From: an uncultured Candidatus Saccharibacteria bacterium
GTDB lineage: Bacteria; Patescibacteriota; Minisyncoccia; Phycocordibacterales; UBA918
Length of the DNA: 64,000 nt
Assembly (NCBI GenBank): GCA_964350735.1
Contig: CAYGKO010000001.1
Location: 246,578-310,577 of the forward strand
Direction of reading: 5' to 3'
A program made the translations under genes and the position numbers. Shown in pieces: positions 2,773 to 15,237 of the stretch (its first letter is position 1; each line of letters begins with the position of its first letter). The notes below the pieces were generated by a model. The model worked only from the letters and a program-made list of their open reading frames with translations, searched no databases and had not been told where the DNA came from.

Positions 2773-4458
2773 ATGTGTACGTACAACCTTAAAAAATCAT
2801 TGTTAGCATTTATCGTCGTTAGTGTTCTTGGGGTTAGCTTCGTTGTTCCATTTCCAGTCCATGCCCAAGCAGAAAACATGGATCGTGAGCAGATCATATC
2901 GCTCATTATGCAATTATTGGCAACGTTACAGACACAGTCGACTACGGCGTCACCAACCTTTGGTACTTCTCCTGAAGGAGGTTTCACATCATCAGGCTTT
3001 AGTGTTGGTGATGAAGTGAAAACTTCCGCTATCTTGCGGGTTCGTTCTGGACCAGGTGTAAATAATAGTTTAGTGAATAACATAGCGGCGTACACCACTG
3101 GCTCAATCGTGAGCGGCCCAAGATACGCCGATGGGTATACGTGGTGGTTAGTCCAATACAATAACGGTACGCGAGGTTGGAGTGCTGAAGGGTGGTTTAC
3201 AAAGCTTTCAAAGAACAATGTAACCCCATTAGTATTGGAAGATGTTTCGGTCACCGTTGCGGATCCCGATTCTGGAGATGTATATGAATATGGGGATCGA
3301 TTGACTGTTACATGGAACCAACAGGGTTCAGTACCAAGAAATAGCGAAGCGTGCGTTACGCTCTATAATGTACGTACAAAAAATTCCTTTGCTTTTCCAC
3401 CTAGTGGTGCAGGTTGTGTAGATATAGCTGGTGAAGAGCCGCAGAGTGGCGTTAGTGCTGAAGTGATTAGAAATTCTGGATACGACCTAGGTCCTGGAAA
3501 CTATCGGGCTGTTGTCACTTTGCGTGGACCAGGAGTGGGATACAAAGACGGAGCTATCATTGCAGAAGCTAAAAGTGGTACGTTTTATATAGAAGACGTA
3601 CTTAAGGAAGAGAAAGACTATGACATTGATATTACTTCACCTCGTCGAGGTGCTGCGTATGAAATTGGCGATAGAATCACAGTGAAATGGGACCATAATG
3701 ATCTGGAAGATGATGTGTTGAACGTCACGCTGCTTGGTCCACTTGATGGATATAAAGCAGAGCGACATATGGTGCAAAGTTATCTAATTGATAAAGGCTC
3801 AGCTTCATTTACAATTCCAGAAGCTGATAGCTTGGGGAGAGTTCGAGAAGGTCGCTACGAACTCTCTGTGTGGGTGACAAATATTAAAGATGGTAGTGCA
3901 AAGTCAGTGTCTGATGATGTGGTAATTGAAATCAATGACAAAAAGGATGTGAGTGCCGTAGATATTGAGTTTATTGATAACGATACGCGGATCAAGACAA
4001 GCTCACCTGCGCTGGGTGAATGGGGTAACTTTACGGTTGAGTTTGAGATTATTGCTGGAGATGAAGATGTATGGATAAAAAATTCACTTTATGGAACCCA
4101 TCAAAATAATTCTAGTTCGCTGTATCAGCCCAAGTATAGCGTTATGAAAGATGGTGAAGTTGTAAGCAACTTCACTGGTAACTTTTCGTCTATGCAGCCT
4201 GGCTTCCTTAGTACCGCTTCCTATGCATACCCAATTGCTGACGAAAAAAATGATAATTATTACGTTGTAAAAGCGGGGGACAGTGAAAAATTTACAGTTG
4301 ATATCACGATGACAGTAAAGGAATCCGCAGATTATCAAGTTCATATAGAGGGTCCACTGTATGTGAAGACTAAGTCTGGAGATACGGTTGTTCTCAATAT
4401 TGATGAAGATGAATTCAGGACGGCTGAGCTTTATATTGAAGGAGAAGACTCACTGTAA
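2773..4458 (+). CDS. secreted protein with bacterial SH3-like domain and repeated Ig-like modules
   Basis: Signal peptide MCTYNLKKSLLAFIVVSVLGVSFVVPFPVHA. SH3b-like segment RVRSGPGVNNS...GYTWWLVQYNNGTRGWSAEGWF. Internal repeats GDRLTVTWNQQG / GDRITVKWDHND. Confidence 0.6.
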   Translation: MCTYNLKKSLLAFIVVSVLGVSFVVPFPVHAQAENMDREQIISLIMQLLATLQTQSTTASPTFGTSPEGGFTSSGFSVGDEVKTSAILRVRSGPGVNNSLVNNIAAYTTGSIVSGPRYADGYTWWLVQYNNGTRGWSAEGWFTKLSKNNVTPLVLEDVSVTVADPDSGDVYEYGDRLTVTWNQQGSVPRNSEACVTLYNVRTKNSFAFPPSGAGCVDIAGEEPQSGVSAEVIRNSGYDLGPGNYRAVVTLRGPGVGYKDGAIIAEAKSGTFYIEDVLKEEKDYDIDITSPRRGAAYEIGDRITVKWDHNDLEDDVLNVTLLGPLDGYKAERHMVQSYLIDKGSASFTIPEADSLGRVREGRYELSVWVTNIKDGSAKSVSDDVVIEINDKKDVSAVDIEFIDNDTRIKTSSPALGEWGNFTVEFEIIAGDEDVWIKNSLYGTHQNNSSSLYQPKYSVMKDGEVVSNFTGNFSSMQPGFLSTASYAYPIADEKNDNYYVVKAGDSEKFTVDITMTVKESADYQVHIEGPLYVKTKSGDTVVLNIDEDEFRTAELYIEGEDSL

Positions 4459-4517: not shown

Positions 4518-4760
4518 CTAGATGAGCTTTGCTGCTTTGAGGACCTTGTAGGCGCCGTTCTTGGCGATAGTCCGAAGTCCTTTAGTAGAAACGTTTACTA
4601 CCACGTGCTTATCAAGCTCTGGTACGAAGATGCGCTTCTTTTGGAGGTTTGGCTGTCGCTTTACCTTCCCGCATGGGTTAAATTGCGTCGCACGAGTACG
4701 GTTACTGTAGCGTCCGCCGATTTGGGTTTTCTTCCCGGTGATTTCACATTGCTTTGCCAT
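4518..4760 (-). CDS. rpmB: 50S ribosomal protein L28
   Basis: MAKQCEITGKK...NRTRATQFNPCGKVKRQPNLQKKRI matches the L28 pattern CxxTGK...N.S.A.N..KR.F.PNLQ. Confidence 0.85.
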   Translation of the reverse strand: MAKQCEITGKKTQIGGRYSNRTRATQFNPCGKVKRQPNLQKKRIFVPELDKHVVVNVSTKGLRTIAKNGAYKVLKAAKLI

Positions 4761-9561: not shown

Positions 9562-9642
9562 TTCAAAACTGCGCAATCGAACCGAAATAAAAAATCTAAG
9601 CCGGACGTAGTAATCAGTGTTATAAACTAAGACAGAAATACT

Positions 9643-9687
9643 ATGACAAAAAAAGTATATTTAGCTGGTGGCTGTTTCTGGGGCTAA
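9643..9687 (+). pseudogene. remnant of an msrA 5' end ([14 protein letters not shown]-stop)
   Basis: 14 codons nearly identical in protein to msrA residues 5-17 ([13 protein letters not shown]) but about 70% identical in DNA; stops immediately afterwards. Confidence 0.6.
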
Positions 9688-9747
9688 AACTGTCTGGGGG
9701 ACAGTTTTAGAAGGTTGCCTACTATTTTGAAAAAATAGTGACAACCT
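9687..9747 (+). promoter_or_regulatory. two consecutive hairpins upstream of msrA
   Basis: AAAACTGTC-tggggg-GACAGTTTT and GGTTGcCTACTATTTT-gaaa-AAAATAGTgaCAACC. Confidence 0.4.
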
Positions 9748-9779
9748 GAACAGTTCCTGTAAGGAATAAGAAAAACTAT

Positions 9780-10280
9780 ATGATACAACAAACAAAGAAG
9801 GCATATTTGGCGGGAGGATGTTTCTGGGGACTCGAAGACCTAATCCGAAACCTCGATGGTGTGATTGATACTGAGGCTGGCTACACCGGTGGAGAGAATG
9901 ACAATCCGACGTATCGTAATCATCCAGGACATGCTGAGGCGGTAGAGATTGAATATGATCCGAAGCAGATTAGCTATCAGGAGCTGCTTGACTTCTTTTT
10001 CCAGGTTCATAATCCAACGACCTTGAATCAGCAGGGAAATGATCGAGGTACTGCCTACCGTTCAGCTATCTTTTTTGCTGATGAAACAGAAAAGGCGGTA
10101 GCTGAAGAAATGATCTCAGTTGTAAATGAGTCTGGTCGCTGGGAGGATGCAGTGGTGACAACTTTAGAACCACTAGATCGCTTCTGGGCCGCAGAGCTGG
10201 AGCACCAAGATTACTTAGTGAAAAATCCAGGTGGGTATACCTGTCACGCAATTTATTTTGATTCGTACCTCACAAAATAG
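9780..10280 (+). CDS. msrA: peptide methionine sulfoxide reductase MsrA
   Basis: [10 protein letters not shown] active-site motif with Cys; length 166 aa. Confidence 0.9.
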
Positions 10281-10287
10281 TTGCGTG

Positions 10288-10383
10288 AAGGTATACATCA
10301 CGTACTGGGACGGTATACCTTGTCAGTATTTTTTATCCTTCAAAATACTAGGCAAGGTCTTGCGAAAGTGTTTAAACACTTTC
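10288..10383. repeat. cluster of three inverted repeats downstream of msrA
   Basis: AAGGTATAC...GTATACCTT; AGTATTTT...AAAATACT; perfect 20 bp palindrome GAAAGTGTTTAAACACTTTC. Confidence 0.5.
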
Positions 10384-10385
10384 TC

Positions 10386-10424
10386 ACCTGTCATGCAATT
10401 TATTTTGATAGCTATTTAAAGTAG
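10386..10424 (+). pseudogene. remnant of an msrA 3' end ([12 protein letters not shown]-stop)
   Basis: Direct repeat of the last 8 codons of msrA (ACCTGTCAcGCAATTTATTTTGAT, 1 mismatch), then diverges to a stop. Confidence 0.6.
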
Positions 10425-10436
10425 GCAAAGGATAAA

Positions 10437-10476
10437 AAACAAACAAACGACGCTAAAAGCGTCGTTTGTTTGTTTG
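10437..10476. terminator. rho-independent terminator
   Basis: AAACAAACAAACGACGC-taaaa-GCGTCGTTTGTTTGTTT perfect 17 bp stem. Confidence 0.8.
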
Positions 10477-12154: not shown

Positions 12155-12826
12155 ATGAATAAAGCTCCACTTAAAAATCGATTTGCCGCCTTGGCGGCGG
12201 ATGTAGTAGTTTTTGGCTTGGTTGATAAAAAACTCCATGTGCTGATTGATGATATTAATCGACCACCGCATTACTGCAATAAGCTTGGATTTTTAGGCGG
12301 ATTAGTTGAACCATCTGAAACAGCAGAGGATACAGTTGAGCGAATTTTATTTGAGAAAGCTGGTTTAAAAAATATGTATACGGAGCAGCTATATACTTTT
12401 AGCAAGGTAGCTCGAGATTTAAGAAACCGGGTTGTCGCAGTAGCGTACATTGGATTTATGACCCCTGATCAGGTTTTGTCGTACACACATGAGTCGGCCC
12501 GATTTGTGCCAGTGACTTCGCTAAAAAATTTAGCGTATGATCACGACGAGATGTTGAAAGTAGCCATCAAGCGCCTGACAGGAAAGCTGGCGTACACAAC
12601 TATCGCGCAGTATTTATTGCCAAATCACTTTACGCTAAGTGAATTACAGAATGTGTACGAAGTGCTGTTGAAAAAAGAGATCGATAAGCGAAACTTCCGT
12701 AAAAAGATTTTAGCCTTACAGGTCATTGAAGAGACTGGGGCAATGCAAGAAGGGATGCAGAATAGACCAGCCGCTCTATATCGGTTTAAGAACAGTAGGT
12801 TACAACAATTATCTGCAGTACTGTAG
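12155..12826 (+). CDS. nrtR: NrtR-family transcriptional regulator (Nudix-like ADP-ribose-binding domain + C-terminal winged helix)
   Basis: Degenerate Nudix box GFLGGLVEPSETAEDTVERILFEKAGL in the N-terminal half, C-terminal about 90 aa helical domain; adjacent to the nadM-nadV operon. Confidence 0.65.
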   Translation: MNKAPLKNRFAALAADVVVFGLVDKKLHVLIDDINRPPHYCNKLGFLGGLVEPSETAEDTVERILFEKAGLKNMYTEQLYTFSKVARDLRNRVVAVAYIGFMTPDQVLSYTHESARFVPVTSLKNLAYDHDEMLKVAIKRLTGKLAYTTIAQYLLPNHFTLSELQNVYEVLLKKEIDKRNFRKKILALQVIEETGAMQEGMQNRPAALYRFKNSRLQQLSAVL

Positions 12827-12917
12827 CAAAACCCTTTTTGTATGTTTACTTATTGTGTATATAACACTAATAAAAAAGGCGACAAGATTTCTCTTGTCGC
12901 CTGAGTTGATTGGTTCC

Positions 12918-14321
12918 TTACACTTGTGCACGCTTACGCACATCAGCGAAGGTGACATCCTCAAGGAGTACGCCATCTCGATAGACCGTCTGCAACAGAT
13001 TGCGCTTTGGATCTAACAGTTCAGCTTCGGCAACAGTACTCTGCGAGCAGCCGCCGATACCACATGAGTCGATGAGGGCTAGGCGTCCGGCTTTGGAGAC
13101 TTTGCCCTGGTCGGTGATCGGATCTTTTTTGATTGCGATCCTCCGGCCATCTTCAACCACTTCGTTCGCCTTCATGGCGTACTTGTGGTCGTCACGACCG
13201 ACGCCCTGCAATAGAGCGCCACCCATGCCCCACACGAGGTTGTTAACATCGAGGCCACGATCAATCATGGCCGCGATGGTGGTCTGCAGACGAGCTTTGT
13301 CCGTCTGGTCGCCTTGAATGACGCCGACTTGTTTGGGTAGCGTGCGATAGCCTTTCTGGGTTTCGCCGTGTCCAAACTTGTCCATCACCATTTCGATGGT
13401 CTCGATCGGCATTTTGGTCGGGTCGCCCGAGTCAGGACGAATAACCAATTTGCCTTGAAGGGCAAGCACGTCATCTTTCAGCTGATCGCCGATCACGTTC
13501 TTGACGAATGAGAAGATGTCATAACTGTCGCCGACGATCGAGAAGAGCGCATCAGGTGCGTCGAACTCCCTAATCATGTGACGCACGTAGTCGACTTCAC
13601 GGTCTGGTCCCCAGGTCGTCGCAATTGAGTGCTCCGACGCAGGAACCGAGAATCCGGCGCAGTCTTCATGGTAGAACCGACGAGCACCAACAAGCGCCTC
13701 GACGTTGTCTGTGCCCATAAAGTTGACCAAATGTCCCATGCCGCCAAGCATGGCCGACTCGCCCGAAGACGCGCCCCGGCCGCCGAAATCATGCAACTTG
13801 AACCAAATTGCTTCTTCTGGTTCGTCTGCGGTGATCTGAAGACCGGCCATGATGACTTTCTTCGCCTCGCGGGAAAGCGTGGCGACGGTCGATGGGTACC
13901 AGATAGCGCGCAGCATTTGGGTTTCTACCCACGTGGCGAACCACGCGAGCTGCGGGTCGGTGCTGCGAACTTGGACTTGCACATTCCCCGGGAGGATCAG
14001 GCTGCCTTCCGGCGCTGCCTGAATTTCCAAGGGAGCCCGTCCACCGTACTGATCGACGATGTAGCGGAAGCCCGCTTCATTGAAGAAGCCAGGCCGCACG
14101 TGAGCGTCCATAATGGACTTCGCCTCATCAACCATCTCGTGCGTATAAGGACGCATAAGATAGGACTTGATGTAGGCCTGAAGGCCGAAGTTCACGACTT
14201 CAGCAGTCAAACCACCACGCGGTTCGATGTAGCCGGACTTTTCAGTCACGCCAGCTGGATCCATTTTCCAATGGCCGAACTTGTAGGTGTCGGCCGAGGC
14301 CAGTGGGTTGAGAGGAAACAT
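12918..14321 (-). CDS. nadV: nicotinamide phosphoribosyltransferase (NadV/NAMPT family)
   Basis: About 467 aa from MFPLNPLASADTYKFGHW (SD GGAGAAACTC upstream); HDFGGRGASS; PRTase type II fold signature. The longer listed ORF start carries a non-coding-looking N-terminal extension. Confidence 0.8.
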   Translation of the reverse strand: MFPLNPLASADTYKFGHWKMDPAGVTEKSGYIEPRGGLTAEVVNFGLQAYIKSYLMRPYTHEMVDEAKSIMDAHVRPGFFNEAGFRYIVDQYGGRAPLEIQAAPEGSLILPGNVQVQVRSTDPQLAWFATWVETQMLRAIWYPSTVATLSREAKKVIMAGLQITADEPEEAIWFKLHDFGGRGASSGESAMLGGMGHLVNFMGTDNVEALVGARRFYHEDCAGFSVPASEHSIATTWGPDREVDYVRHMIREFDAPDALFSIVGDSYDIFSFVKNVIGDQLKDDVLALQGKLVIRPDSGDPTKMPIETIEMVMDKFGHGETQKGYRTLPKQVGVIQGDQTDKARLQTTIAAMIDRGLDVNNLVWGMGGALLQGVGRDDHKYAMKANEVVEDGRRIAIKKDPITDQGKVSKAGRLALIDSCGIGGCSQSTVAEAELLDPKRNLLQTVYRDGVLLEDVTFADVRKRAQV

Positions 14322-14340
14322 GAGTTTCTCCTTTCTCAGT

Positions 14341-15237
14341 TTAAGATTGGTTGAGATGATCGAGCAATGCAGCCCCGAGTATCTGATGGGCATCGATAAG
14401 GTTGTCTATCAGGTCTTCGATGCGGAAGCATTTGACCGCGCTGATGTCGTCATTTGCGGTCGGTGCTTTCCAGCTGTTGGTGACGAGAAAGAAGTCGGTG
14501 CGAGTGCCATCTGCTTCGTCGCGGTAACGCATATCGTCGATTTTGAAATCGCCGATATGGACTGGGTTGCTTAGATTAAGCTCACCAAACTCTTCTTTGG
14601 TTTCCCGCAGCGCAGCAGCTTTTCGGGTCTCATCGCTTGGGTCAACAAACCCGCCGACGAAACGCCATTTGCCACAGTCTTCAGGTTTTTGACCGAGCCA
14701 GATAAATTCTCTGGCTCCATCCATCACCGCCACATCGACGGTAGACAGATCGACCGGATAGCGGCGGGTCGCGTGAGCGATCCAGCCCCGACGGTAGTCT
14801 GCGTTAGTGGTTTCGACTCCTTCGACTTTGATCCGATGCCGGATCTCAGTTCCTGAAGGAGCAGCGACCGGGTCAATTTCTTTGACCGGAAACGCGCCGC
14901 TGTAGTAGGGAGCGAATCCATCGCGTGAGCAGTAGAGGGTGACCTCGGCATCATGCGCGATCTCGTTCACCGTGCGATCAAGCTCGGCGCTCCAGCGTTC
15001 GTTGCTCGGCGTATCTTTGAGTGTCCCGACCAATATGGAAGGGAAGTGCTCATGGACCATCTGAGCGCGAAGGGGTGCTGGTAGCGGGTGCTTGGCACCG
15101 GGCACTTTGTCGCGTTCGCCGAGTAGTACGAGCACTGCATCATTTTCTGCTGTGACCGACTCGATGAGGTGGATATGGCCAGCGTGCAGGATGTCGACCT
15201 GCATGCGAGCGACGATAACACCAAGTGACTGTTTCAT
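14341..15237 (-). CDS. nadM: bifunctional NMN adenylyltransferase / Nudix ADP-ribose pyrophosphatase (NadM-Nudix)
   Basis: N-terminal VIVARMQVDILHAGHIHLI (HxGH nucleotidyltransferase); C-terminal Nudix box GGFVDPSDETRKAAALRETKEEFG. Confidence 0.8.
   Translation of the reverse strand: MKQSLGVIVARMQVDILHAGHIHLIESVTAENDAVLVLLGERDKVPGAKHPLPAPLRAQMVHEHFPSILVGTLKDTPSNERWSAELDRTVNEIAHDAEVTLYCSRDGFAPYYSGAFPVKEIDPVAAPSGTEIRHRIKVEGVETTNADYRRGWIAHATRRYPVDLSTVDVAVMDGAREFIWLGQKPEDCGKWRFVGGFVDPSDETRKAAALRETKEEFGELNLSNPVHIGDFKIDDMRYRDEADGTRTDFFLVTNSWKAPTANDDISAVKCFRIEDLIDNLIDAHQILGAALLDHLNQS

Follow-up and report, generated by a model that had tools for sequence, protein, structure and literature searches.

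Two inverted copies of an uncatalogued structured repeat, each beside a displaced gene terminus, flank msrA in an uncultured Saccharibacteria bacterium

Small repeats of the REP/BIME type are sometimes co-opted for expression, and Rickettsia palindromic elements sit inside genes. IS200/IS605-type elements move as single-stranded DNA and do not make long duplicates of gene ends. The integrative elements of tRNA genes carry a copy of the gene end, keeping the gene intact, and the mobile endonuclease open reading frames (ORFs) of fungal mitochondria, as in the Allomyces atp6 case, give a gene a new terminus, the old one remaining downstream. Partial duplications beside mobile elements are described for mitogenomes as well. 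Background on the IS200/IS605 family is given elsewhere (PMC10055086). In CPR (candidate phyla radiation) bacteria, introns of groups I and II, along with other insertions, are found in rRNA genes (PMC11270868). Here, we compare with these systems the msrA locus of an uncultured Candidatus Saccharibacteria bacterium, which lies in a stretch of 64,000 nucleotides (nt) that we refer to as the window (GCA_964350735.1, contig CAYGKO010000001.1, positions 246,578 to 310,577). The hairpins and gene fragments around msrA in this window represent two inverted copies of one uncatalogued structured repeat, which we call E. With measured confidence, we favour the reading that msrA is flanked by two independently acquired copies of a repeat that is dispersed in Patescibacteria and copied as a single-stranded unit.

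A preliminary description of the locus had noted a 14-codon ORF upstream and a 39-nt segment downstream that copy the two ends of msrA, as well as five hairpins or palindromes between these copies and the gene. All described features were present, with one coordinate off by one base. Local alignment of the flanks to the msrA coding sequence gave scores of 20.5 and 21.5 for the two gene-end copies, compared to 8.8 ± 1.0 and 8.7 ± 1.1 for shuffled sequences (z = 11.5 and 11.9). The features of the locus, in window coordinates, are as follows:

9643..9687, plus strand: displaced copy of the msrA start, a 14-codon ORF (ATG at 9643, TAA at 9685-9687) whose 3′ end is the 5′ edge of the left E copy
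9682..9767, plus strand (msrA sense): left copy of E, with helix P1 at 9684-9710, P2 enclosing P3 at 9712-9747, a junction at 9748-9752 and P4 at 9753-9767
9768..9779, plus strand: variable tail between the left E copy and the msrA start codon; conservation across the E family ends right after P4
9780..10280, plus strand: intact msrA (166 amino acids, PF01625, E-value 2e-58)
10272..10298, minus strand: fold-back arm, an inverted partial copy of msrA 10235-10260 (23/26 bases; score 15.5, shuffles 5.5 ± 1.0)
~10297..10388, minus strand (msrA antisense): right copy of E, with P1 at 10364-10383, P2/P3 at 10320-10355 and a decayed P4
10386..10424, plus strand: displaced copy of the msrA end (39 nt), in frame with msrA at a spacing of 147 nt and followed by the original downstream sequence
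10437..10475, terminator-like on both strands: the original msrA terminator, a perfect 18-bp terminator-like hairpin with the msrA 3′ fragment on one side and the ABC-F gene on the other, shared with the E-free 3′ site of the related locus L206

While all five hairpins were found, they are not independent features, as four of them are helices of the two E copies. The hairpin AAAACTGTC/GACAGTTTT is P1 and GGTTG/CAACC is P2 of the left copy, and the 20-bp palindrome (10364-10383) and AGTATTTT/AAAATACT are P1 and P3 of the right copy, respectively. In the fifth, AAGGTATAC/GTATACCTT, the junction of the right copy is paired with the adjoining inverted msrA copy. The preliminary description had missed that the two spacers around msrA are mutually inverted, that a third, inverted partial copy of msrA is present and that the same structures occur in other genomes. 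The left spacer (9684-9791) aligned to the reverse complement of the right spacer (10281-10385) with a score of 84.5, compared to 51.6 ± 5.6 for shuffles, and the arms of this inverted repeat lie at 9715-9761 and 10303-10355. The likeness between the two E copies is only about 65-70%, and a BLAST search of the window with both spacers and the palindrome returned no further copies. A covariance model built from seven copies of E matched the left copy at 9682-9781 on the plus strand (100.3 bits, E-value 4e-31) and the right copy at 10275-10388 on the minus strand (87.3 bits, E-value 1e-26). The minimum-energy fold of the left copy is the consensus structure (-32 kcal/mol, z = -4.9). In its P4, UUCCU is paired with the Shine-Dalgarno (SD)-like sequence AAGGAA (9761-9766), and msrA starts 13 nt later.

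A short, non-functional duplicate of the gene's terminal 40-55 nt encloses each E copy at msrA. On the 5′ side, the core of the upstream ORF (9646-9683, 38 nt) is 82% identical to msrA 9792-9829 at a start-to-start spacing of 146 nt, and third codon positions hold six of the seven differences between the displaced start copy and msrA. On the 3′ side, 10386-10409 is 96% identical to msrA 10239-10262, and at the protein level the match extends to the stop codon. The earlier view that msrA is bracketed by inverted repeats, with the short ORF and the 3′ piece as its displaced termini, was borne out. The junction sequence supplies codons 1-4 (MIQQ) and the last three codons (T, K and stop) of the present gene. 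The source of the latter, ACA AAA TAG (Thr-Lys-stop), is the fold-back arm at 10272-10298, for which both direct copies of the msrA end are possible pairing partners. Translation of msrA now initiates in a region made up of the variable tail at 9768-9779 and P4 of the left E copy. The stop codon of the upstream ORF (uORF) is located at the foot of P1 of the left E copy, as it is in L206. No SD-like sequence was visible before the uORF, and a promoter and terminator scan found no sigma-70-like promoter upstream of the uORF or msrA, the sole standout being the hairpin at 10437-10475. At the position of this hairpin, the stem in L206 differs from that in the window by compensatory changes.

As a family, E is about 105 nt long (5′-GGGTGAGAA...CTGTAAGGAG-3′) and contains four helices, namely a P1 hairpin, P2 around P3, and a P4 hairpin. 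The helices are linked by the conserved single-stranded stretches GCAAGA and UGUACAG, and the unpaired junctions GCAAGA and GUGUACAG, as well as the P4 loop, are highly conserved. The consensus of seven copies has 29 predicted pairs, 16 of which show compensatory changes. In an alignment of 104 copies, 92.6% of the cells were paired, compared to 38-51% when the partner columns were slid, and 28 of the 29 base pairs had double changes affecting both sides. Across the copies, G.U pairs (103-126) outnumbered A.C pairs (36) by about three to one, and this excess suggests that the single-stranded form is that of the sense strand of E.

Conservation is zero directly upstream of GGGTGAG and directly after P4, so the ends of E are sharp. 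E has no terminal inverted repeats, as its consensus 5′ end (GGGTGAGAAG) is unrelated to the reverse complement of its 3′ end (CTCCTTACAG). Relative to known uninterrupted targets, the 5′ junction shifts by 0-5 nt (...GG/TGAG, ...GGT/GAG, ...GGTG/AG and ...AT/GGTGAG, where the slash marks the junction), consistent with microhomology in which the target overlaps 0-5 nt of GGTG. The GGG before TGAG is conserved at about 1 bit per position. The flanks of E gave no sign of a short target duplication beyond what chance produces, as their longest shared words had a mode of 3-4 nt, the same as in a random-pairing control. We also observed a conserved 9-bp hairpin with covarying stems and a CUGC tetraloop (e.g., GCAAGCAAACTGCTTTGCTTGC) 20-40 nt upstream of some E copies. 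Loci with this hairpin before E and downstream of tRNA genes are L118, L094, L124, L123 and L139, and the hairpin may be the 5′ extension of a longer form of E.

A scan of a metagenome collection with a degenerate pattern, taken from the part of E that is not msrA, identified at least 120 stretches, and the covariance model matched in all 80 loci examined. In a viral collection, there was one weak match to E (14 bits). Rfam searches, in E-value mode on the window region and in gathering mode on 20 loci, returned only tRNA and rRNA and left E unmatched, and a literature search found no description of E. Clustering of 265 neighbouring ORFs revealed no recurrent family beyond the target genes and no transposase, reverse transcriptase or integrase linked to E; this clustering covered the neighbourhoods only and included no full Pfam scan of the neighbours. 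No promoter-like conservation was found upstream of E across the family. In tandem gene contexts, E was oriented in sense in 28 cases and in antisense in 13. P4 contains the SD-like sequence AAGGAG in paired form, and in about 15 loci an ORF begins just after E.

About a quarter of the E copies are located beside a partial duplicate of the terminus of a neighbouring conserved gene, and the working gene is intact every time. The usual layout is a gene fragment (from a to x), E, a few bases like the sequence after x, filler, and the intact gene from a onwards. The genes concerned are the following:

msrA 5′ end, after the GGCFWG codons: the window, L202, L206 (two units), L003, L004, L010, L015 (two units) and L090
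msrA 3′ end, with E inverted: the window and L202, L203 with its site shifted by 9 nt, and L004 with a weak or degenerate match
RNase HII 5′ end, after GIDE(A/V)G, by Pfam assignment: L136, L114 (two units) and L149
tRNA genes: seven loci
5S rRNA: L121
H+-pyrophosphatase (H+-PPase) 3′ end: L127

In four Patescibacteria species-representative genomes (L003, L004, L010 and L015), a second fragment coding for AGGCFWG followed by E was found upstream of msrA. Short inverted copies of the target sequence often adjoin E, and E-linked duplicates occur at 3′ ends and in antisense orientation too. At tRNA genes the E inserts measure 130-320 nt and contain no ORF, and the repeated segment differs at every target. 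We considered E as a self-splicing intron and found no tRNA across any of 78 trial deletion junctions per copy. An in-frame insertion of the Rickettsia type was also considered, but the only frames that cross E are short and spurious. Since deleting E never restores a tRNA and no real ORF runs across it, E is neither intron-like nor like an in-frame insertion.

Several of these loci showed additional arrangements. Tandem arrays of a gene-start fragment plus E were found at L015 (2560-3013) and L114 (4505-4765). In these arrays, the identity between outer and inner fragments reaches 100% across more than 60 nt, which suggests recent unequal crossing-over. In L121 (3026-3615 and 1744-2223), a 5S rRNA gene is followed downstream by three E copies within 600 nt, and the 23S rRNA gene of the contig has a LAGLIDADG-like ORF inside it. 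The upstream E copy of L206 (1620-1780) looks mosaic, with P1-P3, an extra hairpin, a second P2/P3-like module and then P4, which suggests recombination between element copies. In L152 (~4034-4200), an intact tRNA downstream of E was not called by ARAGORN and has an apparent long insertion in the anticodon loop, which may be an intron. Long hairpins with a stem that includes the acceptor 3′ strand follow tRNA genes in L094 (~1110-1180), L107, L123 and L096 (~4616-4690).

The displaced 3′ fragment is in the frame of the live gene in three independent cases (window 10239-10424, L203 3007-3165 and L127 5833-6240), at spacings of 147, 132 and 318 nt, respectively. In the window and L202, the frame is open across E, with no stop codon. 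Stop-codon readthrough into the 3′ fragment was considered but is unlikely, as the peptide encoded over E lacks conservation when the window is compared to L202 (five replacements from about eight nucleotide changes).

The history of the two msrA units was traced in syntenic relatives. L206 has the same gene order as the window, with rhodanese, msrA and ABC-F genes. The identity of its MsrA to that of the window (91%) is in line with that of the flanking ABC-F (89%), which points to vertical inheritance of the msrA body. On the 5′ side, L206 has two units consisting of an msrA-start fragment and E. Its 3′ side is empty: msrA ends in ...SYLK and a stop codon, followed by 7 nt and then the terminator. 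Since L206 has 5′ units and an empty 3′ site, the two sides of msrA represent independent insertions. L202, with an MsrA that is 88% identical to that of the window and an ABC-F gene downstream, contains both E copies and the 3′ fragment. L203 has the 3′ unit only, at a different position, and L003, L010, L015 and L090 have 5′ units only. From these comparisons, the 147-nt 3′ unit was gained in the lineage of the window and L202, and the 5′ unit is older. In a nearest-neighbour analysis with a weak signal from about 100 nt, the E copies at msrA sites did not appear monophyletic, and neither of the two copies in the window was the nearest relative of the other.

We then compared how well the parts of the locus are conserved between these relatives, with the following identities:

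msrA third codon positions: 53% between the window and L206, 49% between the window and L202
Core of the left E copy: 93% (77/83) between the window and L206
Left E copy: 97% (61/63) between the window and L202
Right E copy: 91% (80/88) between the window and L202
uORF fragment: 78% between the window and L206
3′ fragment: 82% between the window and L202
The 80 nt lying upstream of the uORF: close to random between the window and L206

The identity of E between species (91-97%) compared to that of the msrA third positions (about 50%) shows that E is constrained in place. The orthologous left E copies include one compensatory change, from C-G to G-C, in P3.

In 12 comparisons of a displaced fragment to the live gene, 50 of the differing codons were synonymous and 16 were non-synonymous, and third positions held 51 of the 79 nucleotide differences (p = 1.4e-8), with untranslated 3′ fragments included. 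As the differences are mostly synonymous, the fragments resemble pieces of functional alleles rather than freely decaying copies. This pattern would most likely stem from conversion by the live copy or from recombination with alleles that relatives carry. As to which copy of the msrA 3′ end may be native, a manual comparison to L206 over 39 nt, where there is evidence of conversion, found nine differences in the gene-contiguous copy, the closer of the two, and 14 in the displaced copy. A displaced fragment retains the original flank of the gene and could thereby pair with E-free DNA that enters the cell. Saccharibacteria have been reported to be naturally competent (PMC10633639). Mutagenic copying as in diversity-generating retroelements was considered and rejected, as the differences between copies were not adenine-specific.

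E is a discrete unit, structured and sharply bounded; it occurs in tandem arrays and is present or absent between close relatives. In the reading that we favour, the sense strand of E would be copied into new sites as a discrete single-stranded unit and joined via microhomology or template switching, not by a cut-and-paste transposase. Joining near gene ends would leave direct and inverted partial copies of the target, and near or inside conserved genes only those events that preserve one intact gene would survive, resulting in the displaced-terminus signature. Homologous recombination between the duplicated conserved segments could then amplify the unit, remove it precisely, convert it or carry it to related genomes, and such later recombination could account for the mainly synonymous differences of the displaced pieces. 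Transcripts from the old promoter would carry the 14-codon ORF and then E, with msrA being translated from the start region after E. The msrA gene is intact and vertically inherited, and it is probably expressed from a start region that the insertion made. Pairing of AAGGAA within the predicted P4 may enable E to dampen or condition msrA translation.

Several observations weigh against this reading. No enzyme, intermediate or fresh insertion was seen, and mobility is deduced from the distribution of E alone. The strong in-place conservation of both copies, including the antisense right copy, suits a host function better than a dead insertion. With neither terminal inverted repeats nor target duplication nor a linked ORF, E fits no known transposition chemistry. 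Gene-end duplicates accompany only about a quarter of the copies, while the others are intergenic and show no trace of their arrival route. Moreover, duplicates formed in place should start out identical, so a divergence restricted to synonymous sites would require later conversion or recombination. Finally, the similarity analysis in which msrA-site copies are nearest to those from other contexts draws a weak signal from about 100 nt.

The alternative that fares best, although we consider it doubtful as a full account, is that E is a host-beneficial RNA module that was recruited to many transcripts for processing, stability, translation control or protein binding. The partial gene copies would then be by-products of its placement or part of the functional RNA. 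Such a role agrees with the 91-97% in-place identity of E compared to about 50% at synonymous sites, the compensatory change between orthologous copies, the highly conserved unpaired junctions and the excess of G.U over A.C on the sense strand. The pairing of the SD-like AAGGAG by P4, the ORFs that begin just after E in about 15 loci and the 28 to 13 preference for sense orientation in tandem gene contexts point in the same direction. Conversely, no shared function links the genes beside E, which are msrA, rnhB, the tRNAs, 5S rRNA, H+-PPase and many unrelated ones. In tandem contexts, roughly one copy in three is antisense, and the right copy at msrA, itself well conserved, is among these. Nothing promoter-like is conserved upstream of E. 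Function alone would also leave the sharp ends, microhomology junctions, tandem arrays and presence/absence pattern unexplained. The mobile-element and host-RNA readings are compatible and do not exclude one another; REP elements are both mobile and co-opted.

A bolder form of the copying model, which we regard as speculative, is that E is a mobile structured nucleic acid of a new kind. In this form, E would be a single-stranded unit, ribozyme-like, guide-like or reverse-transcribed, that copies itself near the ends of highly conserved genes by template switching. The duplicated segment would serve as a portable homology arm for its spread by homologous recombination between naturally competent Patescibacteria, amounting to a protein-free "homing" in which duplication of the gene end mends the damage that E causes.

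It is improbable that the upstream ORF encodes a functional leader peptide, with E acting as an RNA switch in an msrA-specific attenuator or in a bypass like that of T4 gene 60. The ORF start and the AGGCFWG codons are kept in at least seven genomes with mostly synonymous differences, the stop lies exactly at the P1 foot in both the window and L206, and the modelled P4 could sequester the SD-like sequence. However, the length of the ORF ranges from 14 to about 55 codons, and in L003 and L004 it reads through the entire element. The same layout is seen at tRNA and 5S genes and at 3′ ends, and untranslated 3′ fragments share the synonymous bias. Furthermore, msrA has its own ATG and a complete N-terminus, which makes a bypass unneeded, and the uORF is not preceded by a visible SD-like sequence. 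The attenuator with a decoy uORF, which the preliminary description had offered as its second explanation, is thus disfavoured by the varying stop and by the identical layout at tRNA and 5S genes, at 3′ ends and in antisense orientation, settings in which a leader peptide can play no part. The same description had held that a uORF conserved in relatives would speak against its first explanation, an incoming msrA cassette; the start of the uORF proved to be conserved, but the position of its stop varies.

That first explanation, in which a foreign msrA cassette with inverted-repeat borders replaced the middle of an ancestral msrA in a single event, now seems very unlikely. Inverted E copies do bracket msrA with both old termini outside them, the differences between these termini and the live gene fall at synonymous sites, as between two alleles, and the unit lengths are nearly equal (146 and 147 nt). 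A single event is contradicted by L206, which has 5′ units next to an empty 3′ site. L203 has a 3′ unit only and elsewhere, and four other loci (L003, L010, L015 and L090) have 5′ units only. The MsrA identity to L206, at the level of the neighbouring ABC-F, fits vertical descent, and the two E copies in the window are only about 65-70% alike and are not mutual nearest relatives in the alignment used. Lastly, an assembly artefact of collapsed or chimeric repeats is barely conceivable: the genome is metagenome-assembled and short repeats can mislead assemblers, but an independent Logan assembly from this organism matches at 100% identity across 9131 nt, two other, related species from other samples contain orthologous structures, and the repeats of the 5′ pair are at least 18% diverged and would therefore not collapse.

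The genomes of Patescibacteria are tiny and leave little space for junk, yet the E family is widespread, strongly structured and more conserved than the synonymous sites of adjacent genes. It accounts for a recurrent annotation oddity, in which short ORFs and halves of pseudo-tRNAs resemble the ends of neighbouring genes, and the covariance model offers a means to find them. If E is mobile, it would illustrate a way for an insertion to occupy the terminal codons of essential genes without killing them, and its copies would be natural recombination markers between uncultured lineages. Should E be a functional RNA, this uncultured group would have in it a well-supported candidate for a structured RNA that is specific to the group. 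Elsewhere in the window (12155-15237), an NrtR-like regulator with NUDIX and winged-helix domains is located beside NAMPT/NAPRTase-like and NUDIX genes, and this region looks like a compact NAD-salvage cluster.

Compared to known regulatory systems, E resembles riboswitches in having a conserved structure with covariation, but it lacks a consistent sense placement and a coherent set of genes. Leader-peptide attenuators differ from the present case, where the uORF varies in length and a single covarying fold is found with no supported alternative. The locus also departs from the T4 gene 60 bypass, as msrA is complete with its own ATG and elsewhere no stop follows the first copy. Models of the hammerhead, twister, twister-sister, hatchet, pistol and HDV-like ribozymes had no match in the window region up to an E-value of 10. 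The rRNA insertions of CPR bacteria are found in the same group of organisms and are likewise structured insertions at conserved sites of conserved genes. Unlike group I and group II introns, E matches no Rfam intron model and occupies a spare partial copy, the working gene being free of it.

Among small mobile sequences, classical miniature inverted-repeat transposable elements differ from E in their terminal inverted repeats and target duplications of fixed length, both of which E lacks. REP/BIME, Correia, RUP and Rickettsia palindromic elements are similar to E in being about 100 nt long, dispersed, rich in hairpins and without an ORF, and in occurring in both orientations near gene ends. 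E differs from such REP/BIME-type repeats by its four covarying helices, its conserved unpaired junctions and its lack of terminal inverted repeats or a short target duplication. Its copy number per genome is low, and its tie to duplicates of host gene termini is unique. The miniatures of IS200/IS605 elements (PATEs) share with E the lack of terminal inverted repeats and target site duplications, hairpins near the ends and a strand-specific structure, and the short conserved motif at the left flank of E (GG or GGG) is also PATE-like. In contrast to the one fixed cleavage point of IS200/IS605 elements, the 5′ junction of E slides by 0-5 nt through microhomology at sites whose uninterrupted copy is known, and no TnpA or TnpB gene was found in the neighbourhoods of E, so E is a possible rather than an established member of this class.

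The systems that repeat or displace gene ends come closest in layout. As in the integrative elements of tRNA genes, direct repeats of a gene terminus surround E, one gene is intact next to one displaced fragment, and tRNA sites are frequent. E is only about 105 nt long, however, with no integrase in its inserts and no fixed attachment sequence, and either the 5′ or the 3′ end can be repeated, with protein-coding genes and 5S rRNA also being targets. In the Allomyces atp6-type ORFs, as with E, the gene works via a second terminus, and the displaced terminus is a pseudo-fragment with allele-like differences. Those ORFs encode the homing endonuclease that drives them, whereas E encodes nothing. 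Against this background, we tentatively raise the possibility that the mode of spread of E is new.

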